Source: Escherichia phage UFV-AREG1. Taken from it: DNA of 64,000 nt. Under the pieces are notes generated by a model. That model had not been told where the DNA came from, did not search any database, and worked only from the letters and a program-made list of their open reading frames with translations. Both the position numbers and the translations under genes were made by a program. This document shows positions 14,799 to 55,898 of the stretch, piece after piece (position 1 is the first letter of the stretch; the number at the start of each line of letters is the position of its first letter). The stretch lies in the sequence record KX009778; one strand, 5' to 3'.

Positions 14799-14828
14799 AT
14801 TATACCATACTCATTTTGATATGTAAAC
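14799..14828 (-). promoter_or_regulatory. early promoter (part of stem-loop/promoter cassette)
   Basis: minus strand GTTTAC-18-TATAAT directly downstream of stem-loop 14844-14861. Confidence 0.55.
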
Positions 14829-14843
14829 CGGTAAAATGAAAAA

Positions 14844-14861
14844 GGACTCCCGAAGGAGTCC
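14844..14861 (-). terminator. stem-loop terminator downstream of soc
   Basis: GGACTCC-CGAA-GGAGTCC; on minus-strand RNA the loop is UUCG and a U-run follows. Confidence 0.6.
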
Positions 14862-14870
14862 TTAAATTAT

Positions 14871-15128
14871 TTAACCACCTACACCAGGTGTAGGTGTAAC
14901 AGTCCAAAGACCTTCATTAGCAGTGATCCATTCAGTACGCTGATTTTCTTCATATACTGTAGAATATGCTGCTTTTTCAGAAGGGAATGTCTGATAATGA
15001 GCACCAGAAATTTTGTGAACATCAGAATAAAGAGGGAAAGCTACAGAAATTTCTTTACCCTGAATTGTACCACCATCAACTGCTTGGTCAAATGTTTTGA
15101 TATTAACATAACCGCGAGTACTAGCCAT
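14871..15128 (-). CDS. soc: small outer capsid protein Soc
   Basis: 85 aa; MASTRGYVNIKTF...SVAFPLYSDVHKISGAHYQTFPSEKAAYSTVYEENQRTEW matches T4 Soc as recalled; late promoter TATAAATA upstream; stem-loop downstream. Confidence 0.9.
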   Translation of the reverse strand: MASTRGYVNIKTFDQAVDGGTIQGKEISVAFPLYSDVHKISGAHYQTFPSEKAAYSTVYEENQRTEWITANEGLWTVTPTPGVGG

Positions 15129-15144
15129 GTAATTCTCCTTTTAT

Positions 15145-15354
15145 TTAAATTACATGATTATTTATAATAAATTCTCGCGGAACGTTAAAATACCCGATTT
15201 TAGTTAATATAACAACATCACCGTTAATAATTACCGGAGAATAATCTTCTGGAGCATTAAATTTCCAATGGGCTCTAATATTATATCCATCAGAACCAAA
15301 TGCTCGACTAGCCGGTCTCCCGGCTTTTTGCCATGCATAAAAATCAAATTTCAT
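15145..15354 (-). CDS. hypothetical small protein
   Basis: 69-aa ORF. Confidence 0.45.
   Translation of the reverse strand: MKFDFYAWQKAGRPASRAFGSDGYNIRAHWKFNAPEDYSPVIINGDVVILTKIGYFNVPREFIINNHVI
15159..15166 (-). promoter_or_regulatory. late promoter TATAAATA for soc
   Basis: exact TATAAATA on minus strand about 30 nt upstream of soc ATG. Confidence 0.55.
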
Positions 15355-15545
15355 TTTGAATGCTCTATAATTAATTTTAAAGCTTCTTCACTGACAAAAA
15401 TTTCGTCAGGACCTTCTATAACTTCAACCATACGAAGTTGATTAGTTAAGAGCTCACACACGAGCTCTTTGTTATAATCTTTAAATAGCTGGTCAATACG
15501 TTTCTTATGGGCTTTCTTAAGCTGGCGCTTATTTAAACGAGCCAT
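15351..15545 (-). CDS. hypothetical small protein
   Basis: 64-aa ORF. Confidence 0.45.
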   Translation of the reverse strand: MARLNKRQLKKAHKKRIDQLFKDYNKELVCELLTNQLRMVEVIEGPDEIFVSEEALKLIIEHSK

Positions 15546-16063
15546 TAATAACCTCGGTCTTGACGGGCGAAATTTTCGGCATTTTTCAGGTAATAAAGTT
15601 TAAAGATTTCTTCTGCTGACATTCCAAGAGCAATAAATTTATTCATGAAAAAATGAAATTGGTCAATAAGTTCAAATTTAATTTCAAGCTGATCTTCGGG
15701 AGATAAATCTTGAATTTTCTTGGATTGCATTTCAGAGTAACGTTTCTTCCAAGGTTTCCATACAGCAGAAGCTTCTTTTTCGCCATTACTCATACCACCG
15801 AGAGAAGTATATAGCTCGCGAGTTTCGTCTGCGATATAATCGTCTTGGTTTCGCAGCCAAGCAAGAACTTCTCCTGCAGTTTCAAGTGAATCAGGATGAC
15901 GATTTGTTTCTGGTTTATCATTAGCCAAACGAATCTGTAAATGCCGCTGCATATCAAGCATAACCTGCAGTGGGTCAATATTGTGCATAATATTCTCAGC
16001 ATATGCACGATTTGCTTTATCAACACCTTCGATCAAATGAGCACATTCATTAAAGTAAGCCAT
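15545..16063 (-). CDS. 56: dCTPase / dCTP pyrophosphatase gp56 (MazG-like)
   Basis: ORF track gives a 203-aa version; true start taken at MAYFNECAHLIEGVDKA (172 aa), matching T4 gp56 as recalled and preceded by an RBS. Confidence 0.85.
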   Translation of the reverse strand: MAYFNECAHLIEGVDKANRAYAENIMHNIDPLQVMLDMQRHLQIRLANDKPETNRHPDSLETAGEVLAWLRNQDDYIADETRELYTSLGGMSNGEKEASAVWKPWKKRYSEMQSKKIQDLSPEDQLEIKFELIDQFHFFMNKFIALGMSAEEIFKLYYLKNAENFARQDRGY

Positions 16064-16134
16064 TATTTTTCCTTTCAATTCATGGGTTAGTAGATTAATT
16101 ATACAATAAATATATAAAGCAATAAGGAGGACAT

Positions 16135-16335
16135 ATGGTACAAAAATTAATGGCACTTGTTAATGCCATAAAAGGTAATAAAAAACGTATAGCTTTTACT
16201 ATTTCTGCTATGGTAGGAATTTTACTCTGGAACTTTATTTTATCACCAATTGCAATTGCGCATGGTGTTAATATTCCAGTAGTTACTCTTGATACATTTG
16301 TAGATTTAGCATTTGCTTTAGTTGGGTTGATTTAA
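16135..16335 (+). CDS. plus-strand hydrophobic small ORF (possible membrane peptide)
   Basis: 66 aa; AAGGAGG 4 nt upstream of ATG; lies in the 56-61 intergenic interval and overlaps the gene 61 stop by 4 nt. Confidence 0.3.
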   Translation: MVQKLMALVNAIKGNKKRIAFTISAMVGILLWNFILSPIAIAHGVNIPVVTLDTFVDLAFALVGLI

Positions 16336-17360
16336 ATCTTAGCATATTTAGATAGCCGCATTTTAGCCATCAACCCCTGGGCAATATTATTTTTCATATA
16401 TTCCATAATTTGTTCAGGGGTTGCACCTTCCTTTCTAATCATATCATTGACATCTTTTGATTTCCAGGGAGATTTATCCCAAAACATAACCCTTTCTCCT
16501 GCATCAACTAATTTAGTCATTCGCTTGATAGTGTCAGGGTGACGAGGTTCATTATCTAAAACCCACACTCGTCTATCTTTAAATGGAACAACTTCTAGGT
16601 CTAATTGACCACCCGTAATAGCTATACCATTTTCAATAAAAAGTGAATCTATAGGTCCTTCTAGAACATATACATCACCATCTTTAACTCGTTCGACACC
16701 ATAAATTTTTGTTGCCTCAGGATAAGCTTTAATGGTGATATATTTTTGAGGAGCATCTTTCTTTAATGCACGTCCTTGAAAAGACTCAGCTTTTCCGTTA
16801 GCATTATAAATTGGAATAACAAGACGAGGCTCAGAAATTTCCTTTTTGTATGTTCCCGGTGCGATGCTATTAACTAATTTAGGCCATTCGGTTGTAAACC
16901 AAAGATATTTCCATTTATCCTTTGGAATACAACGAGCTTTTACATATTTTATAATTGGATGGTCTTCCGCCAGTTTATCTAATCTAACACATGACGGAAG
17001 AGATTTAATTATTTTCTTCTCAGGTTGTTTAGGAAGTTCTTTAGGTTTTTCTACTGGACGACTTTTACCTTTTTCTTTTCTTATTTCAAAGATATACTCA
17101 CGATATAAATCAGGTTCAAACTCCTTTAAATATATTCCGATTGGTGCATGATAGTTACAGTTATAACAATGAATATTTCCTTCATTATTATCGCCATAAT
17201 ACCATCCACGAGCTTTATTCTGGTCGGTTTTTGAATCTCCACAAACAGGGCATCTAAACCGCAATTTAAAAGTTGAACTATTATTTACTTGTGTGAATTT
17301 AGGTAAATGAGCTAATGCACGGTATGCAAACTCATTATCAATCCAAGGTATTGATGACAT
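16332..17360 (-). CDS. 61: DNA primase gp61
   Basis: 342 aa as T4 gp61; zinc ribbon CPVCGDSKTDQNKARGWYY...CYNC; TOPRIM-like core. Confidence 0.9.
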   Translation of the reverse strand: MSSIPWIDNEFAYRALAHLPKFTQVNNSSTFKLRFRCPVCGDSKTDQNKARGWYYGDNNEGNIHCYNCNYHAPIGIYLKEFEPDLYREYIFEIRKEKGKSRPVEKPKELPKQPEKKIIKSLPSCVRLDKLAEDHPIIKYVKARCIPKDKWKYLWFTTEWPKLVNSIAPGTYKKEISEPRLVIPIYNANGKAESFQGRALKKDAPQKYITIKAYPEATKIYGVERVKDGDVYVLEGPIDSLFIENGIAITGGQLDLEVVPFKDRRVWVLDNEPRHPDTIKRMTKLVDAGERVMFWDKSPWKSKDVNDMIRKEGATPEQIMEYMKNNIAQGLMAKMRLSKYAKI

Positions 17361-17362
17361 TT

Positions 17363-17527
17363 TTACTCTTCTTTTTCTTTAGATTCCTCTTTTTTCTTTT
17401 TAGGAATCTGTTCAGGACCTTTATTTACTACAGCGCCCGACGTTGTTCCAGTAGAGATATTTTCAGGATTACCACCTGAATCTCCAGCTACCATATCTTC
17501 TTTAATAAATTCTTTATATGTTTTCAT
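17363..17527 (-). CDS. small acidic/lysine-rich protein with CTS-like N-terminus
   Basis: 54-aa ORF not in track; my translation MKTYKEFIKEDMVAGDSGGNPENISTGTTSGAVVNKGPEQIPKKKKEESKEKEE. Confidence 0.4.
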   Translation of the reverse strand: MKTYKEFIKEDMVAGDSGGNPENISTGTTSGAVVNKGPEQIPKKKKEESKEKEE

Positions 17528-18693: not shown

Positions 18694-18722
18694 AACAATC
18701 TCCTCATTTAACCAACAAGACT

Positions 18723-18752
18723 ACTATACCATAGTCTTGTCAGCTTGTAAAC
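18723..18752 (-). promoter_or_regulatory. early promoter for dmd
   Basis: minus strand GTTTAC-18-TATAGT; -10 embedded in palindrome CAAGACTA..TAGTCTTG. Confidence 0.5.
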
Positions 18753-20188: not shown

Positions 20189-20545
20189 TTAAAAGAATTT
20201 AAATTTTTTCTTTGACCTTTTATTAAATGCATCTTGTAGTTGCATTGTAATACATTTTTCTACATGAGGAGCTAACTCAGCTTTTCTTTCTTGGTCAAGA
20301 ACAGCAAAGTCCATTACAACCTTTCCATCAACCCAATCCAGTTTAGTTACATACACTATATGTGTAGAACCATCTTCTAGTTTAATGACAATCTCCTGGA
20401 TAACATTTTCCATAGCAGATTTAATTATCTTAAGAGACTCATTAAAAAGACGTTCTTTTCTTTCTTCTTCCCCCTCCGAAGAGGGGGATTCATCGATAAT
20501 TTCTAAATCTAAATCATCTTTATTCATTAAATTCTTCCATATCAC
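20189..20545 (-). CDS. gene 40-position protein
   Basis: 118 aa between 41 and uvsX; synteny only. Confidence 0.5.
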   Translation of the reverse strand: MIWKNLMNKDDLDLEIIDESPSSEGEEERKERLFNESLKIIKSAMENVIQEIVIKLEDGSTHIVYVTKLDWVDGKVVMDFAVLDQERKAELAPHVEKCITMQLQDAFNKRSKKKFKFF

Positions 20546-24151: not shown

Positions 24152-24161
24152 AATAATTTCC

Positions 24162-24398
24162 TCAAATGCAAGTAGTAATTACTCCAGTAGTGCTTATGCA
24201 GATATTACCCATTTGCACACCTAAAGACCCATTTGTATTCACATGAAGATTATCATCAATTTTAACTGATATTTTACCATTAGTGTGAATAACGGTGCTA
24301 GATTCAATCACAGGTTGAGTATCATTTTCAACACTAACAAATGGAACTGCTGCTAATGCAACTAAACACACTGCTAAACATCCCATAACAATTTTCAT
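24162..24398 (-). CDS. small secreted protein
   Basis: ORF 24162-24410; start moved to MKIVMGCLAV (signal peptide); first ATG lies in the shared GGAGAATAAAATG leader. Confidence 0.5.
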   Translation of the reverse strand: MKIVMGCLAVCLVALAAVPFVSVENDTQPVIESSTVIHTNGKISVKIDDNLHVNTNGSLGVQMGNICISTTGVITTCI

Positions 24399-24419: not shown

Positions 24420-24462
24420 AGTTGATAGTTGTATAGTACCACAGAGGAACAGTCTTGTAAAC
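24420..24462. repeat. 43-bp dispersed repeat (promoter cassette), second copy at 50173-50215
   Basis: AGTTGATAGTTGTATAGTACCACAGAGGAACAGTCTTGTAAAC identical at both loci; partial third copy at 51614-51657. Confidence 0.8.
24433..24462 (-). promoter_or_regulatory. early promoter (cassette copy)
   Basis: minus strand GTTTACA-17-TACTAT; 43-bp identical to 50173-50215. Confidence 0.55.
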
Positions 24463-24549
24463 AGTTTTGTGAAAAATTTTTAGGGAATTCTAAAGGTCCA
24501 GAATCATCTGTTTTTCATAAGTATAGATTTATATTACTTGTATGAAAAA

Positions 24550-24565
24550 GGGACCCGGAGGTCCC
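24550..24565 (-). terminator. stem-loop downstream of gene 43
   Basis: GGGACC-CGGA-GGTCCC. Confidence 0.5.
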
Positions 24566-24578
24566 TAGATTTATTCTA

Positions 24579-27275
24579 TCAGCCAAACAGGAAGTCTAAC
24601 GAAGCTTTTTCTTCATAGTCCATACCAGCCGATTCACACATGCCCGCAAGCGGTTTAACAAACGATTTTTGGAACAAAGTTGAGTAGTCAATCCAAGACA
24701 GTACATCAGAACGAATTTCTTTTGGAAGTTCTGTACCCGACGGCCAAGCAATGCACTTGTCACCAAATGGATTTCCCTCACGTAATGGAAGAACCATTAC
24801 CTTATTTCCATCCAAAATTGGAGCTACACCTAAACCGTTAACAGCTCGACGATAAGTTAGCACACCACGAATATGGAACGGACATTTAAATCCTGGCCAA
24901 CCTTTATCATCATATTTCGCTATATCGTTCGCAGTTTTTACTTCAGCAATAACTTTATAATCAAGTTGACGATATTCTTTCTCAAAGTTCTTATAGTATT
25001 CTTGGACAGACTCTTCGCCTTCCTGAAGAATGCGACGAATACTTTCTTCGAGAGCTTCTTGCACTGCTTTTGGTGTTGAACTCTGCTGAGTTTCCATACC
25101 CATGATTTTTAGATGTGGTTCAGCAAATCGCTTATCTTCCATATCATAAACGTTCAGAGCATAACGTTTTTTCGCTTTCCAAAATCCACCGACACCCTTT
25201 GAACCAAGCGGAGGACAAGAAATAGCTTCACGGTCCATATGCATCAGATGCTCGCGGTTATTCATATAATCACATAACTCACGATATGCAACATCAATCA
25301 TAGGTTCCATCTTTTTCTTACCAAACTGATTCATGAATTCAACTAAATCATTTTGTTCTTTAAAGCGGTCAAGACCTACTTTTTCAATTACTTTATCTAC
25401 ACAAACATATACCGAATCAGTATCACCTGCTGCGATGAAATCTTCACCATCAGTTCCACACACTTTATTCAGATATTCATTAATTTTACGAGCAATCCAC
25501 TGAATACCAACTTGACCAAAAATTGTGATAGCAGTAGCATTTCGCAAATCATAGTAACGGAAATGAATATTACCAAGAGCACCATAAAGACTGTTGATAA
25601 GAATTTTACGGTTCAGCTGATTTGTGTTAGCAAGTGTAGCTGCTTTTTCACATTCTTCGATCAGACTATTAAGAACAGATTCAGTGTAATTCGATAATTC
25701 GTTTAAGAAATCATCACTGAACTTAACATATCGTTCAACTTCTGGTTTAGTTGAGCAAGACCCTGCACCTTTCATAATAATCTTTTTAATAGCTTCGGCA
25801 TTCATTTCTTCGGCGAACATTTTCTTTTTCCAATCTTTACGCTGGAAAAATACTTTAGCGATTTCCTTTGGAATGATACCTTCTTGATGCTTATCATACA
25901 TCCATCCATTCGGAGAACAAGAATATTCATCACTCGGTTTAGGAGCTGTTCCTGCGATATATTCATGAATTGGATGAACTTTAAACTGACCACGAATAGT
26001 CTCAGGACTAATGTTAACCTGACGAATAATGCTCGGATACAGAGACGTCAAGTCAAAACTCATAATATATCGACGAGCAATTGGTTTAGGTTCAAATACA
26101 AATGCACCCGGAAAACTTTGTTTAACGTGCGAACCTTGTTGAGGAATAACCTTGTGTTCACTTTTCAGTGAGTTAAAAATAATAGCATCCCAAGTTTTAA
26201 TAGGACTCATTACACCAGAAAAAGGCATTTTAGCGTAATAAGACATACTTAAAACTAGATCAATAAACCCGCGAATTTTATCAATTGCTTGAACTGATTC
26301 TACGTCAATGATGTTATAACTGATGTATCGTTGATGATTAGTCTCACGAAGTTTATTAATAGGACCGTCGTATGGTAATTTGCCCTTTTTGGTTTCATGT
26401 TGAGCAACTGATTCCAAAGAGAATGACGGCAAATTAGTAAATGCGAATTTCTTGTACAAATCTAAATAATCAAGAATAGATACGCCATCAATAGAATAAA
26501 TTTCTTTGCTACCGTACACATTTTGAATTAGTTTAGATTTTACTCGACCGATTGGAGAGAAGCGTTTCATACTACGTTCACCGAGAACCATTTTAACGCG
26601 ATTCATGATATACGGAACGTCAAATCCCTCAATATTCCAACCAGTAAAAATAGCAGGTCGTTTCTGTTCCCAGAGATTGATATATTCCATGAGCATATCA
26701 CGCTCATTATCGAATGGCATATAAATTACTCGGTCAAGAATTTCTTGAGGAACTTCATCACCACCTTCACAGTCAAGCTTAGCAGCTAGCTTTGCATCCC
26801 ATTTTGATACTGAACCATACATTGAATTCAAAAGGTCGAAAACATAAAAACGATCATCAATTGAATCGTAATGAGTGATAGCATCAATTTCATATTCAGC
26901 TTTCATTGGGTCAGGAAATTTATCACCAGTAACCTCAATGTCACAGTTAGCTACACGAACAAATTTTCGGTCATAAACAATTTCTGAACCGTATGTATCA
27001 CTGATATAAGCGAGTTTAAAATCGTTCATACCGAGAGCTTCGAGACCGATGTCTTCCATTCGTTTCATCCAATCTCGAGCATCTTTCATTGATGGAAATT
27101 TTTGAGGAGCGCAGTTTTTACCATAGATGTCTTTGTACTTTGACTCTTCCTTACAATGCCTAAACATAGTTGGAAGATATTCTACTTCACGAGTACGTTC
27201 ATTTCCATTTTCATCAATATAACGCTCAACAATGTTATTTCCGACTGTTTCAATAGAGATATAAAATTCTTTCAT
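24579..27275 (-). CDS. 43: DNA polymerase gp43 (family B)
   Basis: 898 aa as T4 gp43; exonuclease and polymerase motifs (e.g. YGDTDS) present. Confidence 0.95.
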   Translation of the reverse strand: MKEFYISIETVGNNIVERYIDENGNERTREVEYLPTMFRHCKEESKYKDIYGKNCAPQKFPSMKDARDWMKRMEDIGLEALGMNDFKLAYISDTYGSEIVYDRKFVRVANCDIEVTGDKFPDPMKAEYEIDAITHYDSIDDRFYVFDLLNSMYGSVSKWDAKLAAKLDCEGGDEVPQEILDRVIYMPFDNERDMLMEYINLWEQKRPAIFTGWNIEGFDVPYIMNRVKMVLGERSMKRFSPIGRVKSKLIQNVYGSKEIYSIDGVSILDYLDLYKKFAFTNLPSFSLESVAQHETKKGKLPYDGPINKLRETNHQRYISYNIIDVESVQAIDKIRGFIDLVLSMSYYAKMPFSGVMSPIKTWDAIIFNSLKSEHKVIPQQGSHVKQSFPGAFVFEPKPIARRYIMSFDLTSLYPSIIRQVNISPETIRGQFKVHPIHEYIAGTAPKPSDEYSCSPNGWMYDKHQEGIIPKEIAKVFFQRKDWKKKMFAEEMNAEAIKKIIMKGAGSCSTKPEVERYVKFSDDFLNELSNYTESVLNSLIEECEKAATLANTNQLNRKILINSLYGALGNIHFRYYDLRNATAITIFGQVGIQWIARKINEYLNKVCGTDGEDFIAAGDTDSVYVCVDKVIEKVGLDRFKEQNDLVEFMNQFGKKKMEPMIDVAYRELCDYMNNREHLMHMDREAISCPPLGSKGVGGFWKAKKRYALNVYDMEDKRFAEPHLKIMGMETQQSSTPKAVQEALEESIRRILQEGEESVQEYYKNFEKEYRQLDYKVIAEVKTANDIAKYDDKGWPGFKCPFHIRGVLTYRRAVNGLGVAPILDGNKVMVLPLREGNPFGDKCIAWPSGTELPKEIRSDVLSWIDYSTLFQKSFVKPLAGMCESAGMDYEEKASLDFLFG

Positions 27276-27335
27276 AGATATTCCTTAGTTTATAGCCCGA
27301 GTTATTAGGCTCTTGATATATTATACTCCAATTAA

Positions 27336-27349
27336 GGGGCCGAAGCCCC
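27336..27349 (-). terminator. stem-loop with UUCG-type tetraloop upstream of gene 43
   Basis: GGGGC-CGAA-GCCCC. Confidence 0.45.
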
Positions 27350-27353
27350 TTGC

Positions 27354-27575
27354 TTAAATTAGTACTATTTGTCGGGTGAAAATTGTCAATCCATCTACAT
27401 TAATTGACTTAACGACTGCAGTAAAGTGTTTTTGTTCTGGGTGAATTAATTTTTGAAATTCTACCTGAAATTTTAGTTGGAGGTTTTCTGGTAAATCAAA
27501 AAGTGTTTCTGTCGCAGAAAGATTATATTTTTCTTTAAGAGACGCCATGTATTCTTGCGGAGTTATAGCAGTCAT
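27354..27575 (-). CDS. hypothetical small protein
   Basis: ORF 27354-27617; start moved to MTAITPQEY so that it abuts the regA stop. Confidence 0.4.
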   Translation of the reverse strand: MTAITPQEYMASLKEKYNLSATETLFDLPENLQLKFQVEFQKLIHPEQKHFTAVVKSINVDGLTIFTRQIVLI

Positions 27576-29471: not shown

Positions 29472-29504
29472 AATTTCCTCATTCAAGTTTTAGTGTAAAT
29501 TAAA

Positions 29505-29516
29505 GGGCCGAAGCCC
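29505..29516 (-). terminator. stem-loop with UUCG-type tetraloop between genes 44 and 45
   Basis: GGGC-CGAA-GCCC. Confidence 0.45.
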
Positions 29517-29520
29517 TCTA

Positions 29521-34051: not shown

Positions 34052-34211
34052 ATATCAAGAACCGTCATTGAAATGCAAAATAAAATTATTGAAATAAACC
34101 CATCTGGTGTGCTAAAGAACCCAATCCAACATGCTCTAGTGAATAGATAAAATGCAAGAAAAAGTATCACATATCCAAGAAATATCATTATATCAAACTC
34201 CGTATAAAGCT

Positions 34212-34229
34212 AAAGGGCCGAAGCCCTTT
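34212..34229 (-). terminator. stem-loop terminator downstream of a-gt
   Basis: AAAGGGC-CGAA-GCCCTTT overlapping the a-gt stop codon. Confidence 0.55.
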
Positions 34230-35430
34230 ATTTTGTAATAATGTCAAACTGTTCTTTAAAGCAGAAGCTTGAATCTTGATGCTGATACAAAAATTCATAT
34301 GCTTTTTCTCGCTCATGATCATAAAGAGCTCGGTCAGATGACAGTTCTTTAATACGTTCAAATGTTGATTCCATATCATTTTCATCAAACCAAATGATAC
34401 CGCTATCATGCGAGGTCAAAGGAGTATTATCAACACGGAATTTTAAATTTTCGCCAGTAGATTTCCAAAATACTGGAATTGTTCCACACGCGCCAAGCTC
34501 GAGATGAGTATATTCTAAAGAACGTTGTAGATATTTTTTGTCCAACTTACTCAGCTGATAACCAAATCCGGATTTACTCATGCGTTCAAGCATTTCGCTA
34601 TTTACATAACGGTCAAGAATTTGCGTTGGCAAATTAGGAGCAATTTTAATTTGGTCTACTTGATGAAGACGATAATACTCGTATGGAATTCCTTTTTCTT
34701 TAATAGGAATGAACGCTGGAGAACGTTCCAGACCTTCCATAATAGTACTTAGTCCTGCAGGTTTAAGATGTTTTTCGTGAAAATCAAACATCTGATAAAA
34801 ACCTTTCCATGTAGTCGTACGACCAATCCAACGGTTGATATTCATGTTAATTTCAGAAACATCTTTCCAGTAGGTTGACCGAACCTTCGCAATATCCATA
34901 GGAGGCTGAAAGTTATATACTGTCGGTGCTTCTTCAATATCATCAAACAGAGAAACAGTTTCTGGATACCACTCTTTCATCAGAACTTTATTAAAATCAC
35001 CATTATCAGAATGGCTAAAAATAACATCAGCTCGACGAACAGTTTCTTCTAATCCCAAATTTCGACGCAAAGAAAGAGAAGAATGGTCATGTTGATAAAC
35101 TACAACACGAACAGAAGGTTTAATGTTATCAATAATTTTTTTATAGTTATTAATAGTGTCTTCTTCAACCGAAGTAGCAGGAACTGAATTGATAATTAGA
35201 ATATCACAATCATTTACCAGCTTAAGTGTTTTATCATATTCTTTTGCCAATAAAACCGGAATTGAAAATGATTTATAATCATGCGCGCAGTTACGAGTAA
35301 ATGATTTATCTTTAGCATAAACCAAAGTTACTTCATGACCATTTTTAATAAACCAATCACGCTGCTCAAGAGAAAATTTAGTTACACCGCAACCTTCAAG
35401 ACCTCGAGCCATAAAAATACATACTTTCAT
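34228..35430 (-). CDS. a-gt: DNA alpha-glucosyltransferase
   Basis: 400 aa; MKVCIFMARGLEGCGVTKFSLEQRDWFIKNGHEVTLVYAKDKSF nearly identical to T4 alpha-gt as recalled. Confidence 0.9.
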   Translation of the reverse strand: MKVCIFMARGLEGCGVTKFSLEQRDWFIKNGHEVTLVYAKDKSFTRNCAHDYKSFSIPVLLAKEYDKTLKLVNDCDILIINSVPATSVEEDTINNYKKIIDNIKPSVRVVVYQHDHSSLSLRRNLGLEETVRRADVIFSHSDNGDFNKVLMKEWYPETVSLFDDIEEAPTVYNFQPPMDIAKVRSTYWKDVSEINMNINRWIGRTTTWKGFYQMFDFHEKHLKPAGLSTIMEGLERSPAFIPIKEKGIPYEYYRLHQVDQIKIAPNLPTQILDRYVNSEMLERMSKSGFGYQLSKLDKKYLQRSLEYTHLELGACGTIPVFWKSTGENLKFRVDNTPLTSHDSGIIWFDENDMESTFERIKELSSDRALYDHEREKAYEFLYQHQDSSFCFKEQFDIITK

Positions 35431-35481: not shown

Positions 35482-35500
35482 ATAGGAGCCGAAGCTCCTA
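35482..35500 (-). terminator. stem-loop with UUCG-type tetraloop
   Basis: TAGGAGC-CGAA-GCTCCTA upstream of a-gt. Confidence 0.45.
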
Positions 35501-35671
35501 TCCACATAATACGCCATACAGAGGCTCGTTAGAACTTTTAAATTTTATGCGCTTATATGTTATAGTTCCTTCTGCTTTAGCTTTATCATGAGACTCTTTA
35601 AAGCGTCTCATCATTTCCTCTTTAGAGGAACGAATTTTATTATAATCTATTTCAGAAGTCTGGATGTTCAT
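35498..35671 (-). CDS. hypothetical small protein
   Basis: 57-aa ORF not in track (MNIQTSEIDYNKIRSSKEEMMRRF...); stem-loop overlaps its stop. Confidence 0.4.
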   Translation of the reverse strand: MNIQTSEIDYNKIRSSKEEMMRRFKESHDKAKAEGTITYKRIKFKSSNEPLYGVLCG

Positions 35672-37852: not shown

Positions 37853-37868
37853 AAGGGCCGAAGCCCTT
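37853..37868 (-). terminator. stem-loop with UUCG-type tetraloop
   Basis: AAGGGC-CGAA-GCCCTT. Confidence 0.45.
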
Positions 37869-39767: not shown

Positions 39768-40238
39768 TTAATCATGTTTCCACACCCCATCGGTATTTGA
39801 CCAAAGTCGCTGATTATCTGATCCTCGCCACAGCTTTTTAGTCGGAAGATTTTTCTCATACTTCCCATCAATAATAACATCAACATATTTAAGCATTTCT
39901 AGTTGTTTAATATCTTCAAACTTATATCCTGTCCACAACCAAATGCTTTTATTGGGATAAAGATTTTTTACTGTTTGAACCACAGAGTGAATCACGTCTC
40001 TGTTATCAGGATAAAGAGGGTCACCTCCGGTTATAGTTAATCCTTCTATATAATCATTATTCAAACATTCAATCAATTGTTCTAGTGTTTCACCAGTAAA
40101 TGGAATACCATTTCTAGCATTCCATGTTGATTTATTATAACACCCTTCGCATTTATGCAAACATCCAGTAACGAAAAGAACTGTCCTGCATCCAGGACCA
40201 TTAACAAAGCAGCACGGGTATATTCTGTCATAATTCAT
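39768..40238 (-). CDS. nrdG: anaerobic ribonucleotide reductase activase NrdG (radical SAM)
   Basis: 156 aa as T4 NrdG; Cys cluster CRTVLFVTGCLHKCEGC. Confidence 0.85.
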   Translation of the reverse strand: MNYDRIYPCCFVNGPGCRTVLFVTGCLHKCEGCYNKSTWNARNGIPFTGETLEQLIECLNNDYIEGLTITGGDPLYPDNRDVIHSVVQTVKNLYPNKSIWLWTGYKFEDIKQLEMLKYVDVIIDGKYEKNLPTKKLWRGSDNQRLWSNTDGVWKHD

Positions 40239-41067
40239 TTATATATTTCCAATTATAGCCTTCAACACTTTTACGTTCGCCATTTAAACATTTTAAAATA
40301 TTTCCTTTGCTAGAAATATTAAAATATTTTGCTGCGTCTGGTATATAATTAAATGTTTTTAAAAGAACACCATCTTTATATGCGCCAAATAAATTAAGAG
40401 TATATTTTTCTCGAAGACGCTGATGTTTCCTTTTCATAACCTCAGGATTTGCATACGCCAACTTCAATGAATTTCTGTGTTTTTCTTTTACTTCAGGTTT
40501 TTGCATTGCTAACTTAGTTAGCCTGGAAATTTTATTTCTAACTTCGTCAGTTTTCATTGCATTTGACAAATTTAATAAAGTTTTATTTCTAACTTCAGGT
40601 TTTTGCATTGCTAACTTAGTTAGTTCTCTATGTCTTTTTCTAAAATCGTCATCCTTCCATATATTTTTCGATAATTTTGACATAGAGCGGTGAAATAATT
40701 CCTTTTCACTGGAATACAATTTAAAAATTTCATCCAATTCATCCGCATTAAATCTATCGGTATTCGAGTTTATCATTCTATGAAAGGCATAACACATTTT
40801 ACTATTGCTTGTTTTAGCTAAATAGTAATGAGCTAACGCATGGTCATAATATGACAAATTAACAATATTCCATTTATCTGTTTTATATTCAGGAAATATA
40901 GATTTGGGAAGCACGTGATGTGCTTCCGTTTTTCCTTTTATTTTAGGATTATTATAATTTTTTGTTATCAAATCAACATATGACAATAGTAAATCATTAT
41001 TTTCTTCAAATATTAAAGCTAATTTATCATTCACAAAATCGCAAGGATAAAATCTATCATAATTCAT
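40228..41067 (-). CDS. HNH homing endonuclease
   Basis: 279 aa; HNH-type motif AHHVLPKS...N...HALAHY; repeated LTKLAMQKPEV helices; inserted between nrdG and nrdD (the slot T4 mobC occupies). Confidence 0.7.
   Translation of the reverse strand: MNYDRFYPCDFVNDKLALIFEENNDLLLSYVDLITKNYNNPKIKGKTEAHHVLPKSIFPEYKTDKWNIVNLSYYDHALAHYYLAKTSNSKMCYAFHRMINSNTDRFNADELDEIFKLYSSEKELFHRSMSKLSKNIWKDDDFRKRHRELTKLAMQKPEVRNKTLLNLSNAMKTDEVRNKISRLTKLAMQKPEVKEKHRNSLKLAYANPEVMKRKHQRLREKYTLNLFGAYKDGVLLKTFNYIPDAAKYFNISSKGNILKCLNGERKSVEGYNWKYINEL
40491..40623. repeat. 31-bp perfect direct repeat inside HNH endonuclease gene
   Basis: CTTCAGGTTTTTGCATTGCTAACTTAGTTAG at 40491-40521 and 40593-40623; encodes repeated LTKLAMQKPEV helix. 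Confidence 0.8.
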
Positions 41068-42881
41068 TGGTGTTTAACCCTATGCATGATTTCTTTATTT
41101 TTACCGAGATTAAATCCGCGTTCATTCGGATTTCCCAAATAACCACATGTTCTTCTTATTGTGTTCATCTTTTTAGGATCAGTTTCTCCACAGATAGAAC
41201 AAACAAATCCGTTTTCAGTAGGAGTCATTTCATGGGTACTTCCGCATGTAAAACACTTATCTACTGGCATATTAACACCAAAATAATCTAAATACTGTGC
41301 AGCATAATCCCACACGGCCTCAAGACCTTTTAAGTTATTTTTCATATCTGGAAGTTCAACATAAGAAATGTGACCGCCGGTCGCAATGAAATGATATGGC
41401 GCTTCACGAGAAATCTTTTCAAACGGAGTAATATTTTCTTCTACTGAAACATGGAAACTGTTAGTGTACCAGCCTTTATCGGTAACATCTTTTACACTTC
41501 CATATTTTTCTGTATCAAGTTTACAGAAGCGATAACAAAGGTTTTCAGCAGGAGTCGAATATAAACTAAAAGCAAATCCAGTTCTTTCAGTCCACTGTTT
41601 AAGATGAGCATTCATTTTAGTTAAAATTTCTTGTCCAATATCACGACCGACAAGAATATTCAATTCGTGAATACCAATGTATCCTAGGGACACTGAACTT
41701 CTACCGTTTTTAAATAACTCAATTATATCGTCATCAGGTTTAAGACGAACCCCGAATGCACCTTCTTGGTAAAGAATAGGAGCAACAGTTGCTTTAACTC
41801 CTTTTAAGGAACTAATTCTACACATCAAAGCTTCAAAACATAAATCCATTCGTTCATTGAACAATTCGATAAATTTCTGTTCATTGAACTGTGTTCCAAT
41901 ATAAGAATCTAATGCGATACGAGGAAGATTCAGTGTTACAACACCAAGATTATTACGTCCATCAAGAATTTCATTACCAGTCGAATCTTTCCATACGCTC
42001 AAGAAACTACGGCAACCCATTGGAGAAACCGGAACTGAAGAACCAGTAATAGCTTTATTATTCTTAACCGAAATAATGTCAGGATACATTCTTTTGCTTG
42101 CGCACTCTAGAGCAAGCTGTTTAATATCATAGTTCGGATCGTTTTTATAAAGATTAACACCTTCTTCAACAAACATAACAAGCTTAGGAAAAATAGGAGT
42201 TATCCCATCACGACCAAGACCTTTAATACGATTTTTCAGAATTGCTTTCTGAATCATTCGTTCAGTCCAGTCAGTTCCCGTACCAAATGTAATTGTTACA
42301 AAAGGCGTTTGCCCGTTTGAACTAAAAAGAGTATTTACTTCATATTCATAAGCTTGGAATGCATCGTATACATCTTTTTCTGTTTTAGATTGAGCATAAT
42401 TCAACGCATCAGCGATTTGCCATTTTTCTGCATCCTCAATATGTTTTGCATAGGTGCGTTTAACATAAGGAGAAAGTACTTTATCTACATTAGCAAAAGT
42501 CGTTCCGCCGTATTGATGGGAAGCAACCTGTGCAGTAATTTGTGCCATAATTGCGGTAGCAACTCCAATTGATTTAGGAGTTTCAATCTGTGCATTACCT
42601 AGCTTAAATCCGTTTTCAAGCATTCCTTTTAAATCTACTAAACAGCAATTAGTAAATGGAAGAGCAGGGGAATAATCAATATCGTGGAAATGGATAATTC
42701 CGCTTTCATGCGCTTTCATAATAAAAGACGGGACCATATTTTTGGCAATGTGTTTAGACACAATACCAGCCATAAGGTCCCGTTGAGTTGGAAAAACACG
42801 AGAATCTTTATTAGCATTCTCGTTTAAAAGGTCTTTATTAGTTTTATGAATCAATCCTTCAATTTCTTTTTCAATTGTCAT
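41064..42881 (-). CDS. nrdD: anaerobic ribonucleoside-triphosphate reductase NrdD
   Basis: 605 aa as T4 NrdD; C-terminal glycyl radical motif RTCGYLG; Zn-binding Cys pairs. Confidence 0.9.
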   Translation of the reverse strand: MTIEKEIEGLIHKTNKDLLNENANKDSRVFPTQRDLMAGIVSKHIAKNMVPSFIMKAHESGIIHFHDIDYSPALPFTNCCLVDLKGMLENGFKLGNAQIETPKSIGVATAIMAQITAQVASHQYGGTTFANVDKVLSPYVKRTYAKHIEDAEKWQIADALNYAQSKTEKDVYDAFQAYEYEVNTLFSSNGQTPFVTITFGTGTDWTERMIQKAILKNRIKGLGRDGITPIFPKLVMFVEEGVNLYKNDPNYDIKQLALECASKRMYPDIISVKNNKAITGSSVPVSPMGCRSFLSVWKDSTGNEILDGRNNLGVVTLNLPRIALDSYIGTQFNEQKFIELFNERMDLCFEALMCRISSLKGVKATVAPILYQEGAFGVRLKPDDDIIELFKNGRSSVSLGYIGIHELNILVGRDIGQEILTKMNAHLKQWTERTGFAFSLYSTPAENLCYRFCKLDTEKYGSVKDVTDKGWYTNSFHVSVEENITPFEKISREAPYHFIATGGHISYVELPDMKNNLKGLEAVWDYAAQYLDYFGVNMPVDKCFTCGSTHEMTPTENGFVCSICGETDPKKMNTIRRTCGYLGNPNERGFNLGKNKEIMHRVKHQ

Positions 42882-47205: not shown

Positions 47206-47235
47206 ATTATACCACATCCTTGTGGCAAAGTAAAC
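47206..47235 (-). promoter_or_regulatory. early promoter for coiled-coil family member 2
   Basis: minus strand GTTTAC-18-TATAAT; spacer CCACAAGGATGTGG also found in promoter 2429-2458. Confidence 0.55.
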
Positions 47236-48260
47236 TAGTTCAGTGCATTTAGTGCATTGTTCAGTTTAGAACGTTGCTTTGTCAGATTTTGAACCCTTGA
47301 CTGAGCTTGTTCTAACACCTTTTCAGCTTCTAGCACTTCATTTGTCGCTTTAACGAGTTCATCATCTACTGCCTTAAGAGACTTCTCAATCGCGTCAGCG
47401 TGCCATTTTTCTACAGGTTTAAAATTTGAATTTTCAGTAGGAAGAAAACTCACTTTATTAAGTTTACATGCATCTATATTGCTTGAGCTATACATCCAAA
47501 ATTTAGGATCGTTTGATGAGTAATTGGATAAATTTAAATTTAAGTTATCTTGCACTTCCTGCTTTTTCTCTTGCGTGACTTCGTCCTTTCTCAAAAAATC
47601 GTATTTAAATGAAACGATCATATCAAGTTCATACGTTGTTGTGTCTAATTTAAATCGTTCAAAACGAGGTAAAATCTTAGATTGAACAGCAGCAACAACA
47701 TCCATATACTTAAATGCTTCTGTCAACTGCGATTTAAGGCATTCGCAAATTGAAAGAGAATTTTTTGTATTAGGTTTAAAGCTAATTCGTGCAGTTCTAT
47801 TATTTTCTTTAAATGGTCTTACTTCCATCTGAAGAGTATAACCATCAAATTTCAGATTCTTTAAGTTAATATCAGAACCTTTTAATCGACTAGCCGTAGA
47901 CAAAATTTGCTTTAATTGTTTACGGAATAGAGCAATAAATCTCCATTCAAGACGATAATGATTTGGATTAAAAAATCCTGTTGATAAATCAACCTTACTC
48001 TGACCAACGCCTTGAACAAATAGAGGATTTTTATAATCAATAGTTTTACAGAAATCGGTGAGCTGCTCACGAGCAGTCATTTGTGTAATATACCCCGCTT
48101 TACTAAAATGACGTAACCATTCACTGCTATTCATATACTTAAAGTGAATGGAACTATTAACTCTATCAGGGTCTAAATTATTTTGGCACAAAAATGTCAT
48201 AACATTACGGGTATAGCTGGCATTACGAACCATATCTTCAATTTGAGAACGAGTTTTCAT
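47235..48260 (-). CDS. coiled-coil-tailed family protein, member 3
   Basis: 341 aa; starts MKTRSQIEDM; C-terminal helix ...ELVKATNEVLEAEKVLEQAQSRVQNLTKQRSKLNNALNALN. Confidence 0.55.
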   Translation of the reverse strand: MKTRSQIEDMVRNASYTRNVMTFLCQNNLDPDRVNSSIHFKYMNSSEWLRHFSKAGYITQMTAREQLTDFCKTIDYKNPLFVQGVGQSKVDLSTGFFNPNHYRLEWRFIALFRKQLKQILSTASRLKGSDINLKNLKFDGYTLQMEVRPFKENNRTARISFKPNTKNSLSICECLKSQLTEAFKYMDVVAAVQSKILPRFERFKLDTTTYELDMIVSFKYDFLRKDEVTQEKKQEVQDNLNLNLSNYSSNDPKFWMYSSSNIDACKLNKVSFLPTENSNFKPVEKWHADAIEKSLKAVDDELVKATNEVLEAEKVLEQAQSRVQNLTKQRSKLNNALNALN

Positions 48261-50185: not shown

Positions 50186-50215
50186 ATAGTACCACAGAGG
50201 AACAGTCTTGTAAAC
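50186..50215 (-). promoter_or_regulatory. early promoter (cassette copy)
   Basis: minus strand GTTTACA-17-TACTAT. Confidence 0.55.
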
Positions 50216-51627: not shown

Positions 51628-51657
51628 ATAGTACCATAAAGCTTTATGCTTGTAAAC
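51628..51657 (-). promoter_or_regulatory. early promoter for P-loop ATPase gene (cassette copy)
   Basis: minus strand GTTTACA-17-TACTAT, stem-loop 51685-51709 just upstream. Confidence 0.55.
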
Positions 51658-51684: not shown

Positions 51685-51709
51685 AAAGGGGGACCTCTAG
51701 GGCCCCTTT
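51685..51709 (-). terminator. extended stem-loop (cassette)
   Basis: AAAGGGG...CCCCTTT with inner pairing, followed by promoter 51628-51657. Confidence 0.5.
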
Positions 51710-51717
51710 GTGTTGAT

Positions 51718-52203
51718 TTATTCCATTTCTACTATGTGCATGTTCTTTTTGCTATCAAAATATATGTTTTTAACTATTAACTCAGAATTAATTGGCAGTA
51801 AAAACTCTCTTTCATAATCTACCATGCAAAGATTATCATAAAGCTTGTTAAGCTTATCATCGTCAGTTTGACCAGATTCTTCAATTGCGATTAAATTTTC
51901 TAAAATGTCAATCATAGCAGTCGAATAGTCGAAAACGTTTGCATTTTTTAACACTACTAAAACATTAGTCATATAGCGTTCTGCCGCAAACGTTTCAGCT
52001 ATATGAGACTCACTGCTAAAGGAAGTTATTCTTTTAAATTTGATTCTCCTATTAACTTCAAACTTATAAGATAGCACTTCCTCTATTGTAAGTCCTCTAA
52101 AAAGTGTGTCTTTAATCTCAAGTTTGTCTTTAATGTAATCATTAACACGCTTATGATTAAAATCATTAATTTTGTTGCCAAGGCATTGCATTAAAATATG
52201 CAT
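51718..52203 (-). CDS. hypothetical protein
   Basis: 161-aa ORF flanked by stem-loop/promoter cassettes. Confidence 0.5.
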   Translation of the reverse strand: MHILMQCLGNKINDFNHKRVNDYIKDKLEIKDTLFRGLTIEEVLSYKFEVNRRIKFKRITSFSSESHIAETFAAERYMTNVLVVLKNANVFDYSTAMIDILENLIAIEESGQTDDDKLNKLYDNLCMVDYEREFLLPINSELIVKNIYFDSKKNMHIVEME

Positions 52204-52249
52204 TGTATTCTCCTCAATTTTTAAAGAGCAATTAATTAACTACACATAT

Positions 52250-52279
52250 ATTATAATATGCTTTGCGGCAGAAGTAAAC
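52250..52279 (-). promoter_or_regulatory. early promoter (cassette)
   Basis: minus strand GTTTAC-18-TATAAT, stem-loop 52308-52325 just upstream. Confidence 0.5.
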
Positions 52280-52307
52280 AACTTTGTGGCGTCATTTTAA
52301 ACAAAAA

Positions 52308-52325
52308 GGGAGCCCGAAGGCTCCC
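52308..52325 (-). terminator. stem-loop with UUCG-type tetraloop (cassette)
   Basis: GGGAGCC-CGAA-GGCTCCC directly after NTase-fold gene stop. Confidence 0.55.
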
Positions 52326-52327
52326 TA

Positions 52328-53341
52328 TCATTTATAATAACTTCGGTGGTTTTCAAGATAAACCTTCTCAAGGAAATCATCCCAAAAACCCATGTCTACT
52401 TTTTGCTGCATACCGTTCTTAGAAGCTTCAATGGATGCTGCTTCTACTTGATCGACCACATCTTCCAAAAACTCTTGAACAGTTTTAAATGGATGTTTAC
52501 CCAGCTTCACGTCGAGAATAAACGGAGCATCTTGAAGTGGATAGACTAAGTCACCAGTTTTGTAAATTTCCAATAGTTGGAGTCCACCACGACAAGCATG
52601 ACTCAATGCTTTCCAGTCAATACCTTCATTCGCTTCAGCCTTACGAGCACGTTCACCGTATTCGGCATCAAGTTTATTCAAAGACTGCTTAAGCTCAATA
52701 AGAGAAAGTGTTGTCTGATATTTACGACCCAACACAGTGTAGAACGTTTGTGGACCGGTTTTCTCATGATTATGGAATACCCATTCACAGAATTCGTTCT
52801 CTGGAAGACGATGCTTAATATCTTCAACTTTAGTGCGACGTTGCTTAATGGAACCGTCTTCTTGGTAATCAACCCATTGCTCAGGGATTTGATTAACTAC
52901 TTTCAATACATCACGCAATGCGGCCAAACGAGAACCCTTAACACCATATTTAGAAGCTTGCTTGCGGACATATCCTAAATAGGATTTCATGTTAGTCGTA
53001 TAAAAACGAGAACGATTGTCTTGAATAAACTTCCATACATCAGGCAAATCAGATTTAACTACCAGTTCAGGTGGAGTGTGAAGCATATCCAATGCTACAG
53101 TTTCACCATCTGCTGCTAATTTAAAGAAATATTTAAGACTGTATAGTTCATGGTCAATATCATCTTTAGTGTTTTTAGATGATGTGTTGTTCGTGTTTTT
53201 ACTCATATGCTCTTTAACATTTCCGATAAGAATATCACGAGCAGGAGGAACAAAGATTTCTTTAAAATCTACATCAGATTCTGGAGTAGAAGTTCCATAA
53301 AGATGACTACCAAAATAGCTTTTCATTACTGTTTTCATCAT
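52328..53341 (-). CDS. nucleotidyltransferase-fold protein (Pol-beta-like NTase superfamily)
   Basis: 337 aa; N-terminal GS-x(9)-DxD signature (YFGSHLYGTSTPESDVDF) typical of minimal NTase fold; function unknown. Confidence 0.55.
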   Translation of the reverse strand: MMKTVMKSYFGSHLYGTSTPESDVDFKEIFVPPARDILIGNVKEHMSKNTNNTSSKNTKDDIDHELYSLKYFFKLAADGETVALDMLHTPPELVVKSDLPDVWKFIQDNRSRFYTTNMKSYLGYVRKQASKYGVKGSRLAALRDVLKVVNQIPEQWVDYQEDGSIKQRRTKVEDIKHRLPENEFCEWVFHNHEKTGPQTFYTVLGRKYQTTLSLIELKQSLNKLDAEYGERARKAEANEGIDWKALSHACRGGLQLLEIYKTGDLVYPLQDAPFILDVKLGKHPFKTVQEFLEDVVDQVEAASIEASKNGMQQKVDMGFWDDFLEKVYLENHRSYYK

Positions 53342-53790: not shown

Positions 53791-53802
53791 TAATAATCAT
53801 AA

Positions 53803-54324: not shown

Positions 54325-54330
54325 ATTTCC

Positions 54331-54888: not shown

Positions 54889-55023
54889 AATTACATACTC
54901 CTTTGAATAATATCAATAATATTGTTCACCAAATTATAAGTAAACATTGGGTAATTATATTGAATCATCACATACACAACAAACAAAACTTTCATTCTCT
55001 TCTCCTTGGCAGTTGGCAAAATT

Positions 55024-55053
55024 ACTATACCATAACCTTGCCAACTTGTAAAC
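55024..55053 (-). promoter_or_regulatory. early promoter
   Basis: minus strand GTTTACA-17-TATAGT. Confidence 0.5.
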
Positions 55054-55218
55054 CATTAAATGACGTTTTCAATAAAATTCTGGAGTTTTGTGTGAGCATC
55101 AACCATGATTTTCATTTCTTCCTTTGCGAAAGCTATACCTCTTTCCCGAGAAGAACGCTCATAGTCAGAAACTGCATTAGCATATTCTTCAATTAGCTTC
55201 ATTAAAAACATCTGCTTT

Positions 55219-55413
55219 TCAGTTTTCATTATTCCACCTAATCATTTCAAGATATTGAACTAACTTAGCTTTGGATTTATCCAAATCCTTTTTAGCCGCT
55301 TCTATACCATCGTATGAATATCCTTCACAATGCTCAACTGCCAATTGGTATGAATCTATTTCAATATCACGTGCTAATTTAATGATTTTTTCAAACTGTT
55401 CACGTGTTAGCAT
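55219..55413 (-). CDS. hypothetical small protein
   Basis: 64-aa ORF. Confidence 0.4.
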   Translation of the reverse strand: MLTREQFEKIIKLARDIEIDSYQLAVEHCEGYSYDGIEAAKKDLDKSKAKLVQYLEMIRWNNEN

Positions 55414-55415
55414 AC

Positions 55416-55619
55416 TTAAACTCTCGTATTATGATCGATAATTTCATCAAGAAACATATCTAAAGCTTCTACAGCATTATCAACTTTAGCTTCAAGTTCT
55501 TCAGCGCCTTTATTTGCAATGCCTGCCGAAAACCAAGCAAAGTCACTAAGTTCCTCGTCTGCTTTGCGAATTAAAGCTACCAATTCTTTAATTTTATCTG
55601 CTTGTTCGATACTAATCAT
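55416..55619 (-). CDS. hypothetical small acidic protein
   Basis: ORF 55416-55655; start moved to [17 protein letters not shown] overlap with upstream stop. Confidence 0.4.
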   Translation of the reverse strand: MISIEQADKIKELVALIRKADEELSDFAWFSAGIANKGAEELEAKVDNAVEALDMFLDEIIDHNTRV

Positions 55620-55807
55620 TATTCCACCACATATGAAAGAGAGAATATTGCACACGCCATATGAGTTGCAGCTTCATCACACATATCATAACGTTTCTTA
55701 AGAAGTTCTACAAGCTCTTCACTGGTAACTTCATCCATGTCGACGAAAAAATCACCATTAATGATGACGTAGATATTTCCTTCTTGATTAAGTGCTTCAA
55801 TTTTCAT
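55619..55807 (-). CDS. hypothetical small protein
   Basis: ORF 55619-55852; start moved to MKIEALNQ after GAGGAG RBS and promoter 55836-55865. Confidence 0.4.
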
Positions 55808-55835
55808 GATGTTCTCCTCTTTATCTGATGGTTGT

Positions 55836-55865
55836 ATAGTATCACAGCTCAAATGGAAAGTAAAC
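55836..55865 (-). promoter_or_regulatory. early promoter (cassette)
   Basis: minus strand GTTTAC-18-TACTAT, stem-loop 55881-55898 just upstream. Confidence 0.55.
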
Positions 55866-55880
55866 CGGTAAAATGAAAAA

Positions 55881-55898
55881 AGTCTCCCGAAGGAGACT
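55881..55898 (-). terminator. stem-loop with UUCG-type tetraloop (cassette)
   Basis: AGTCTCC-CGAA-GGAGACT, preceded by same GTAAACCGGTAAAATGAAAAA context as at 14823-14843. Confidence 0.55.

Follow-up and report, generated by a model that had tools for sequence, protein, structure and literature searches.

In T4-type phages, promoter early stem-loops (PeSLs) have been proposed as vehicles of modular gene shuffling. Arbiol et al. 2010 made the proposal for RB49/phi1, where promoter and terminator activity was measured with reporter fusions and mini-circles with crossovers inside PeSLs were reported (PMC2839356), and Comeau et al. 2014 extended it to T4/PST, with the consensus TTTACW-N17-TAYWAT, and to nt-1/KVP40 (PMC4122927). 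Here we analysed a stretch of 64,000 nucleotides of DNA from Escherichia phage UFV-AREG1 (sequence record KX009778; this whole stretch is called the window), which holds five intergenic cassettes, P1 to P5, in which a hairpin is followed by an early promoter. These five elements are PeSLs and so belong to a class already known. They share with the published examples the succession of an intergenic stem-loop, an A/T-rich region, a sigma-70-like early promoter, a Shine-Dalgarno (SD) sequence and an ATG, promoters that fit the T4/PST consensus, several copies per genome with conservation over up to ~100 nt, and an open reading frame (ORF) with two flanking cassettes where relatives have a single cassette, the crossover lying in the A/T-rich region as in Figure 3 of Arbiol et al. 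They differ in that their stems are mostly C(UUCG)G hairpins upstream of the promoter, whereas the typical RB49 stem is poly-G/poly-C and overlaps the -35 or -10; moreover, two of the five are evolutionarily fixed, and an enrichment of breakpoints at them could not be shown in the window. The likeness is also graded: a stem-loop lies next to the promoter in P1, P4 and P5 (13–27 nt upstream), weakly so in P3 and loosely in P2 (86 nt), and differentially present ORFs are flanked by P3/P4, partly by P2, and not by P1 or P5.

Three other described systems resemble parts of this arrangement. Phage morons (Hendrix/Juhala), as far as they are discussed in PMC2839356, are likewise promoter-ORF-terminator units inserted between two conserved genes, but according to that discussion are not thought to move via conserved flanks, whereas the flanks here are repeated regulatory cassettes that provide homology. 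Indels due to homing endonucleases (PMC2988022) also give rise to presence/absence differences at borders between genes of this region (mobA, segF, segA, mobB, mobC, I-TevII and mobD relative to T4); their mechanism, however, is double-strand break and repair, and the cassette-bounded module described below contains no endonuclease gene. Finally, CUUCGG hairpins in intercistronic positions on the T4 sense strand were described by Tuerk et al. 1988 and, in the account given in PMC7165471, re-counted on the T4 genome.

With considerable confidence, we read the five loci as boundaries of early transcription units, a terminator hairpin and then an early promoter, that are permissive for exchange but unreliable as markers of breakpoints. 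This is established biology, to which the window adds, modestly, one clean example of an exchanged module and the absence of a significant breakpoint enrichment.

Anatomy, repetition and conservation of the cassettes

Because all genes of the window are on the minus strand, the cassettes have to be taken in reverse complement, where the hairpin precedes the promoter. All five then show the same order: stop codon, hairpin plus U-run, A/T-rich spacer, GTTTAC-N18-TA(C/T)(T/A)AT, 5' untranslated region (5'UTR), SD and ATG (Table 1). Perfect C(UUCG)G stems of 7–9 bp are found in P1 (AAGGACTCC-UUCG-GGAGUCCUU, -15.4 kcal/mol, z -4.4 against shuffles), P4 (AGGGAGCC-UUCG-GGCUCCCU, -19.0 kcal/mol, z -4.7) and P5 (AGUCUCC-UUCG-GGAGACU, -10.8 kcal/mol, z -2.75). 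The P2 stem is also perfect and carries the UNCG variant C(UCCG)G (z -2.1), and the P3 hairpin falls outside the C(UUCG)G/UNCG tetraloop class. Four to six T follow directly after the stem in all five cassettes, which agrees with the sequence criterion for a Rho-independent terminator, and an independent terminator scan placed the cassette hairpins among the top terminator-like sites between 44 and 64 kb. An Rfam gathering scan of the window returned no match.

Table 1. Minus-strand cassettes of the window and the ORFs lying next to or between them.
Feature	Coordinates	Strand	Position or identity	Hairpin	Hairpin 3' end to G of GTTTAC (nt)	-35	-10	Other
P1	14773..14870	-	between soc (stop 14871-14873) and mrh.2 (ATG 14772)	14842-14863 (UUCG loop, U-run)	13	GTTTAC 14823-14828	TATAAT 14799-14804	SD GAGGAG
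P2	24399..24578	-	between gene 43 (stop 24579-24581) and extra 78-aa ORF-a	24549-24566 (UCCG loop, U-run)	86	24457-24462	TACTAT 24433-24438	family-B 5'UTR
P3	51591..51717	-	between ADP-ribosyltransferase ORF (stop 51718-51720) and nrdC.10 (ATG 51590)	51685-51709, imperfect (GGGGCC-CUAGA-GGUCCCC), U-run	27	51652-51657	TACTAT 51628-51633	A/T spacer
P4	52204..52327	-	between nrdC.11 (stop 52328-52330) and ADP-ribosyltransferase ORF (ATG 52203)	52307-52326 (UUCG loop, U-run)	27	52274-52279	TATAAT 52250-52255	
P5	55808..55902	-	between rI.-1 (stop 55903-55905) and mobD.5 (ATG 55807)	55881-55898 (UUCG loop, U-run)	15	55860-55865	TACTAT 55836-55841	
ORF-a	24162..24398	-	78 aa, PHROG 4189 (no assigned function); in an insertion hot spot immediately downstream of P2 promoter					
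ADP-ribosyltransferase ORF	51718..52203	-	161 aa, module cargo; ModA-like; PHROG 832, E 7e-24					

A preliminary description of this DNA had placed UUCG hairpins followed within 20–30 nt by such a promoter at these loci. All five loci exist, though they make sense only when read on the minus strand, and the promoter pattern holds in each. The loop was correctly named for P1, P4 and P5 and not for P2 (UCCG) or P3 (imperfect, no UUCG), while the distance is right for P3 and P4, close for P1 and P5, and wrong for P2. The promoter early stem-loop cassettes that it names as mediators of modular shuffling are the PeSLs of Arbiol et al. and Comeau et al., and the flank it saw shared by 14823-14843 and 55860-55880 is an exact 21-mer (GTAAACCGGTAAAATGAAAAA; two copies against 0.01 expected).

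The repetition extends well beyond this 21-mer. In an unbiased scan, the largest direct-repeat families of the window are early-promoter regions; the cassettes belong to families D1, D2, D4, D5, D6 and D20, with pairwise alignments of 85–95 nt. Around the 21-mer, P1 and P5 are similar over 36 nt at 94% (family D20), or over ~85 nt with gaps, and in every genome of a panel of five non-redundant relatives (T4, PST, Ec_MI-02, T2 and Shfl2) they are paralogous over ~45 nt, CTCC-TTCG-GGAG..TTTTTCATTT..G-GTTTAC-TTTCC. An IMG/VR scan for the shared 21-mer gave seven short stretches with at most two per contig, too sparse for a study of context. P2 and P3 share, over ~90 nt, their UP region and a 5'UTR that belongs to no promoter consensus, and P2 has a perfect 42-mer, from -35 to +12, in common with the nrdC.8 promoter (50215), the 30-mer from -35 to -10 of P2 being identical to 50186-50215. 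As P2 shares segments with both, it is a mosaic of two other promoters. T4 early promoters have UP, -35, TGn and -10 motifs as well as additional consensus positions (PMC2988021), and some of the repetition among early promoters is due to this shared consensus. A further pair, the early promoters of rIIA.1 (2429-2460) and nrdC.4 (47206-47237), lie 45 kb apart and are 97% identical over 32 nt; their common sequence, including the spacer between -35 and -10, is GTTTACTTT[A/G]CCACAAGGATGTGGTATAAT.

Could the cassettes simply be chance matches of AT-rich sequence to a loose consensus? A generic sigma-70 scan hardly departed from shuffled sequence (100 vs 85.9 matches), as this explanation would have it. 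It is nevertheless refuted by the specific motifs. The window holds 19 occurrences of the looser T4 early pattern GTTTAC-N16-19-TANNAT where shuffles predict 1.24 (~15-fold), and 18 of the 19 lie on the minus strand; sense-strand UUCG hairpins with stems of at least 5 bp number ten against 0.27 expected (~40-fold). In addition, the cassette elements are retained at orthologous positions in different genera, and compensatory changes are seen in them.

Such changes occur in the stem of P1. At the soc/mrh.2 junction its hairpin is kept, with double changes from C-G to A-U, in T4, PST, Shfl2, T2, RB27 and a Dhakavirus, and the P5 stem differs from that of P1 by a swap of A-U to U-A. Across ten orthologous and paralogous copies, six stem pairs are paired in 100% of cases (60/60 cells), three of the six have compensatory double changes, and none of 500 shuffles scored as high. 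To judge from this pattern, the covariation points to an RNA structure under selection, as one would expect of terminators or mRNA-stabilising 3' hairpins.

The primary role of the cassettes would seem to be regulatory, maintained by selection on RNA structure and on the promoter. We envisage that the hairpin, usually of the highly stable C(UUCG)G type, and its U-run end or attenuate the mRNA of the upstream gene (soc, gene 43, the ADP-ribosyltransferase ORF, nrdC.11 or rI.-1), which the hairpin probably also stabilises, and that the early promoter, with its A/T-rich UP-like spacer, GTTTAC -35, TGn and TAnnAT -10, restarts transcription for the next gene. The elements illustrate how T4-like phages keep their small early genes apart as transcription units of their own, and the cassettes are useful for annotation as operon boundaries. 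Among the papers searched, no genome-wide maps of T4 transcript 5' and 3' ends were found.

An ADP-ribosyltransferase module bounded by P4 and P3

Demonstrably, to go by the alignments, one cassette-bounded exchange event has occurred in the window, and its product is the module between P4 and P3. In T4, PST, Ec_MI-02 and Shfl2 the interval between nrdC.11 and nrdC.10 contains a single cassette, and a module of 612 nt is absent. In the window and in T2 the same interval reads hairpin P4, promoter, 161-aa ORF, hairpin P3 and nrdC.10 promoter. The limits of this 612-nt difference are 51690 and 52295-52303, and its junctions overlap by 8–16 nt. The breakpoint at P3 (51690) is found in the four independent panel genomes T4, PST, Ec_MI-02 and Shfl2, and also in RB59, and the breakpoint at P4 (52295-52303) falls between the hairpin and the -35.

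The cargo is a third Mod-type ADP-ribosyltransferase gene, 28% identical to the ModA of the window (BLASTP); a Pfam search of the 161-aa ORF gave no match. The enzyme probably modifies host proteins. The gene occurs in only 42 phage records, among them T2, Moon (Moonvirus) and STML-198 (Gelderlandvirus). Salmonella phage STML-198 is 92.4% identical over 51698-52288 only, with nrdC.10 at 75% and nrdC.11 at 68%. Across Tequatrovirus, Moonvirus and Gelderlandvirus the module is 92–93% identical at the nucleotide level and its flanking genes 68–75%, and because of this step in identity the sequences indicate that the ADP-ribosyltransferase module was transferred recently between genera. In both STML-198 and Citrobacter phage Moon, high identity begins 9 nt upstream of the -35 (position 52288); it ends inside hairpin P3 in STML-198 and ~20 nt further, in the U-run/UP segment, in Moon.

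Related fusions are seen elsewhere. A T4-type 5'UTR is joined to another small ORF in STML-198, and an unrelated T2 ORF near 24.4 kb (ORF-b) carries the 5'UTR of the nrdC.8 promoter. Together, the module and these 5'UTR fusions fit the PeSL model in Figure 3 of Arbiol et al., with crossovers in the A/T-rich region.

We propose that a second role of the cassettes arises from their repetition. Near-identical stretches of 40–95 nt would serve as homology for the phage recombination machinery, such that a promoter-ORF-terminator unit could be inserted, deleted or passed between phages with its neighbours undisturbed. For the module the crossover zones would lie in the U-run/UP-element segment, and something similar may have happened at the gene start downstream of P2. 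Such exchange would be one way for phages to acquire and lose accessory genes and to hand them on across genera while neighbouring genes stay intact, and the cassettes might be used as natural insertion sites in phage engineering.

The module, present in three genera, is complete in itself as a promoter-ORF-terminator unit, and Arbiol et al. 2010 raised an integron-like possibility and reported encapsidated mini-circles (PMC2839356). Together these observations invite a more radical explanation, namely that the cassettes are dedicated integron-like mobile elements whose hairpin is a site for a specific recombinase or DNA-binding protein, with ORF cassettes travelling as mini-circles. We consider this very unlikely. 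Hairpin sequence varies from one cassette to another with covariation that preserves pairing, which points to selection at the RNA level and not to a DNA recognition site; the zones of crossover map to the A/T spacer or to the SD/ATG, with no fixed position; P1 and P5, which have the most hairpin sequence in common, are the least plastic; and no integrase-like gene is associated with the cassettes. Recombination in T4, moreover, operates on short homology (Singer 1982, cited in PMC2839356). A related and bolder proposal is that the hairpin/UP segment is the preferred entry point of an integron-like exchange system that moves self-expressed genes, here the third Mod-type ADP-ribosyltransferase, as mini-circles between Straboviridae genera. 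This is a speculation to which we attach little credence; if true, one could predict from the sequence of a cassette which accessory genes are able to spread.

Gene-content breakpoints at cassettes and at other junctions

Outside the module, the association of cassettes with variable gene content is looser. At P2, an insertion hot spot (24152-24398) lies between the gene 43 promoter region and imm.1, and the site downstream of the cassette occurs in three states: empty in T4, PST and Ec_MI-02, occupied by ORF-a in the window, Shfl2 and 320 records, and occupied by ORF-b in T2. The junctions there are at the SD/ATG of two start codons, with the microhomology ATGAAAAT, ~40–50 nt downstream of the -10 and not at the hairpin. 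The paralogous cassettes P1 and P5 are each fixed at a conserved position. Breaks at P1 were suspected in RB27 and a Dhakavirus, which have divergent mrh.2 and soc alleles, and were rejected on finding gene order and cassette kept.

Chained blastn alignments of the window to the panel, with RB59 left out of the statistics as the same species as T4, gave 52 unique boundaries of indels 40 nt or longer, of which 30 lie in gene-junction zones that make up 11.8% of the window. The gene map came from tblastn of T4 proteins together with ORF calls, and gene junctions were defined by a heuristic, so the junction classes are approximate. Early-promoter junctions had a breakpoint in 5/19 cases and the others in 24/103 (p=0.49), and early promoters and breakpoints counted by hand in 8-kb bins did not rise together. 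Many breakpoints are insertions of homing endonucleases or introns relative to T4, and other indels lie between short repeats at ordinary gene starts, the repeat at 24.4 kb being one example.

Several results weigh against the view that the cassettes are terminator-promoter units that also serve in exchange. Breakpoints fall at two of the five cassette junctions and at 27 of the 117 other junctions (p=0.34), the first count rising to 3/5 if a boundary 2 nt outside the P2 zone is included; the panel of five is small and the power of this comparison low. No breakpoint was found at P1 or P5 in the panel, and more widely the P5 junction is intact in 498 records, at 95–99% identity, and the P1 junction in 431. 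Hairpins and promoters do not co-occur beyond chance in the window (Fisher p=0.33): of the 44 intergenic gaps that reach 40 nt, seven have both, nine a promoter only, nine a hairpin only and 19 neither. A conserved stretch of 86 nt separates the P2 hairpin from its promoter, and the P3 hairpin, which lacks a UUCG loop, is inseparable from shuffled sequence (z -1.3; 29 of 200 shuffles fold equally well). The cassettes that flank the module in the window share only ~16 nt, and homology-driven excision is therefore plausible in T2, where the two cassettes align over ~95 nt with a ~30-nt near-perfect core, and weak in this phage. Lastly, while the anatomy, repetition and covariation of the cassettes, the boundaries of the module and its identity step between genera are shown by the sequences, we infer termination, promoter activity at the exact sites and homologous recombination as the mechanism.

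As to the preliminary description, its claim that the density of cassettes marks recombination breakpoints is not supported for the cassettes as a class in the alignment to five relatives. For single loci it is borne out by the P3/P4 module and loosely by P2, and fails at P1 and P5, the very loci singled out for their shared 21-mer. Caution is in order, as the places where gene content varies cannot be predicted from cassettes alone.

The same results bear on a rival account in which the cassettes are purely regulatory elements that share the few gaps of a compact genome, recombination is incidental, and the module is a survivor of random indels at gene boundaries. Breakpoints concentrate in junction zones whatever the type of junction and are not enriched at cassettes; the pairing of hairpin and promoter is itself not enriched; other indels rely on short repeats found at ordinary gene starts, such as ATGAAAAT and the e.2 repeat described below, or on internal microhomology, as in ORF009; and many events are homing-endonuclease or intron insertions. 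We give this account an appreciable but minor chance, as it leaves other observations without a ready explanation. The identity step of the module starts and ends within conserved cassette segments, 9 nt upstream of the -35 at one end and in or just after the terminator hairpin at the other. The copies that flank the module in T2 share a near-perfect repeat of ~30 nt, the same 5'UTR stands before unrelated ORFs in different phages, and the mini-circles of Arbiol et al. 2010 had their crossovers inside PeSLs (PMC2839356). We thus retain the reading of the loci as transcription unit boundaries permissive for exchange.

Two further indels in the window are of other kinds. A T4 segment of 455 nt containing e.2 is absent (site 63542-63571), with no promoter or hairpin at this indel; in T4, e.2 is flanked by a direct repeat of ~22–30 nt comprising gene end, SD and ATG (TGATTGCAGGAAATTAAAATGA; T4 67472-67501 and 67957-67986). 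ORF009 (89 aa, PHROG 3720; 5812-6081) is intact in the window and in T2; in T4 and PST an internal microhomology deletion of 200 nt has reduced it to a small remnant ORF, which stands behind a degenerate family-B promoter (T4 6482-6653). An apparent insertion at 5874-6073 beside this degenerate promoter was considered as a cassette event and rejected, as the alignment shows it to be the internal ORF009 deletion in T4 and PST.

Other hairpins, early promoters and gene content of the window

The tetraloop hairpin is a wider feature of T4, and the cassettes are only a subset of its occurrences. As in T4, to the extent that PMC7165471 recounts the hairpins of Tuerk et al., the window has sense-strand UUCG hairpins, ten in all, including three of the five loci. 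Only those three have a downstream early promoter; the cassette arrangement differs in this from the other seven, most of which also lack a U-run. These seven C(UUCG)G hairpins (4328-4345, 20469-20488, 27334-27351, 29504-29517, 34211-34230, 35482-35501 and 37853-37868) lie mostly between replication genes and are likely to be mRNA-stabilising or processing hairpins rather than terminators. Conversely, most of the ~20 credible early promoters in the window have no upstream hairpin. Stems that overlap the -10, another PeSL subclass in Arbiol et al. 2010 (PMC2839356), occur at several early promoters, namely those with the -35 at 6741, 7749, 18752 and 55053. Inverted repeats that span or overlap the -10 lie at 6706-6727, 7707-7734, 18711-18744, ~55020-55050, 2433-2450 and 47210-47227, one example being GCTGACAAGACTA-TGGTA-TAGTCTTGTTGGT (-17.3 kcal/mol).

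The window represents the region of early genes in a T4-like coliphage, a Tequatrovirus. Megablast with 14–34 kb and 40–64 kb matched ~500 Tequatrovirus records at 95–99% identity, many of them at 96–97%; none was identical to the window, and each match was split into several pieces. By tblastn with 129 T4 proteins the window is colinear with T4 from rIIA to e.4, and lacks the T4 genes mobA, segF, dam, segA, b-gt, mobC, I-TevII, mobD, denV, ipII and ipIII. The topoisomerase large subunit is a single gene of 605 aa (39 and 60 fused; 2458-4275), as in PST and T2, without the bypass element of T4 gene 60, 60.1 or mobA. The nrdD gene has no intron (42343-42346) and no I-TevII. Between nrdG and nrdD, in place of T4 mobC, is an HNH-type endonuclease-like sequence (40228-41047) with 27–32% identity to T4 MobB and MobD, inside which a 42-nt direct repeat of 90% identity occurs at 40480-40521 and 40582-40623, 102 nt apart (family D14). 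A small ORF between regA and gene 43 (27354-27575) matches Pfam PF25760 (Phage_RB18_ORF43.1) and corresponds to PST ORF046; it is absent from T4, T2, Shfl2 and Ec_MI-02, and its downstream boundary adjoins the UUCG hairpin at 27334-27351.

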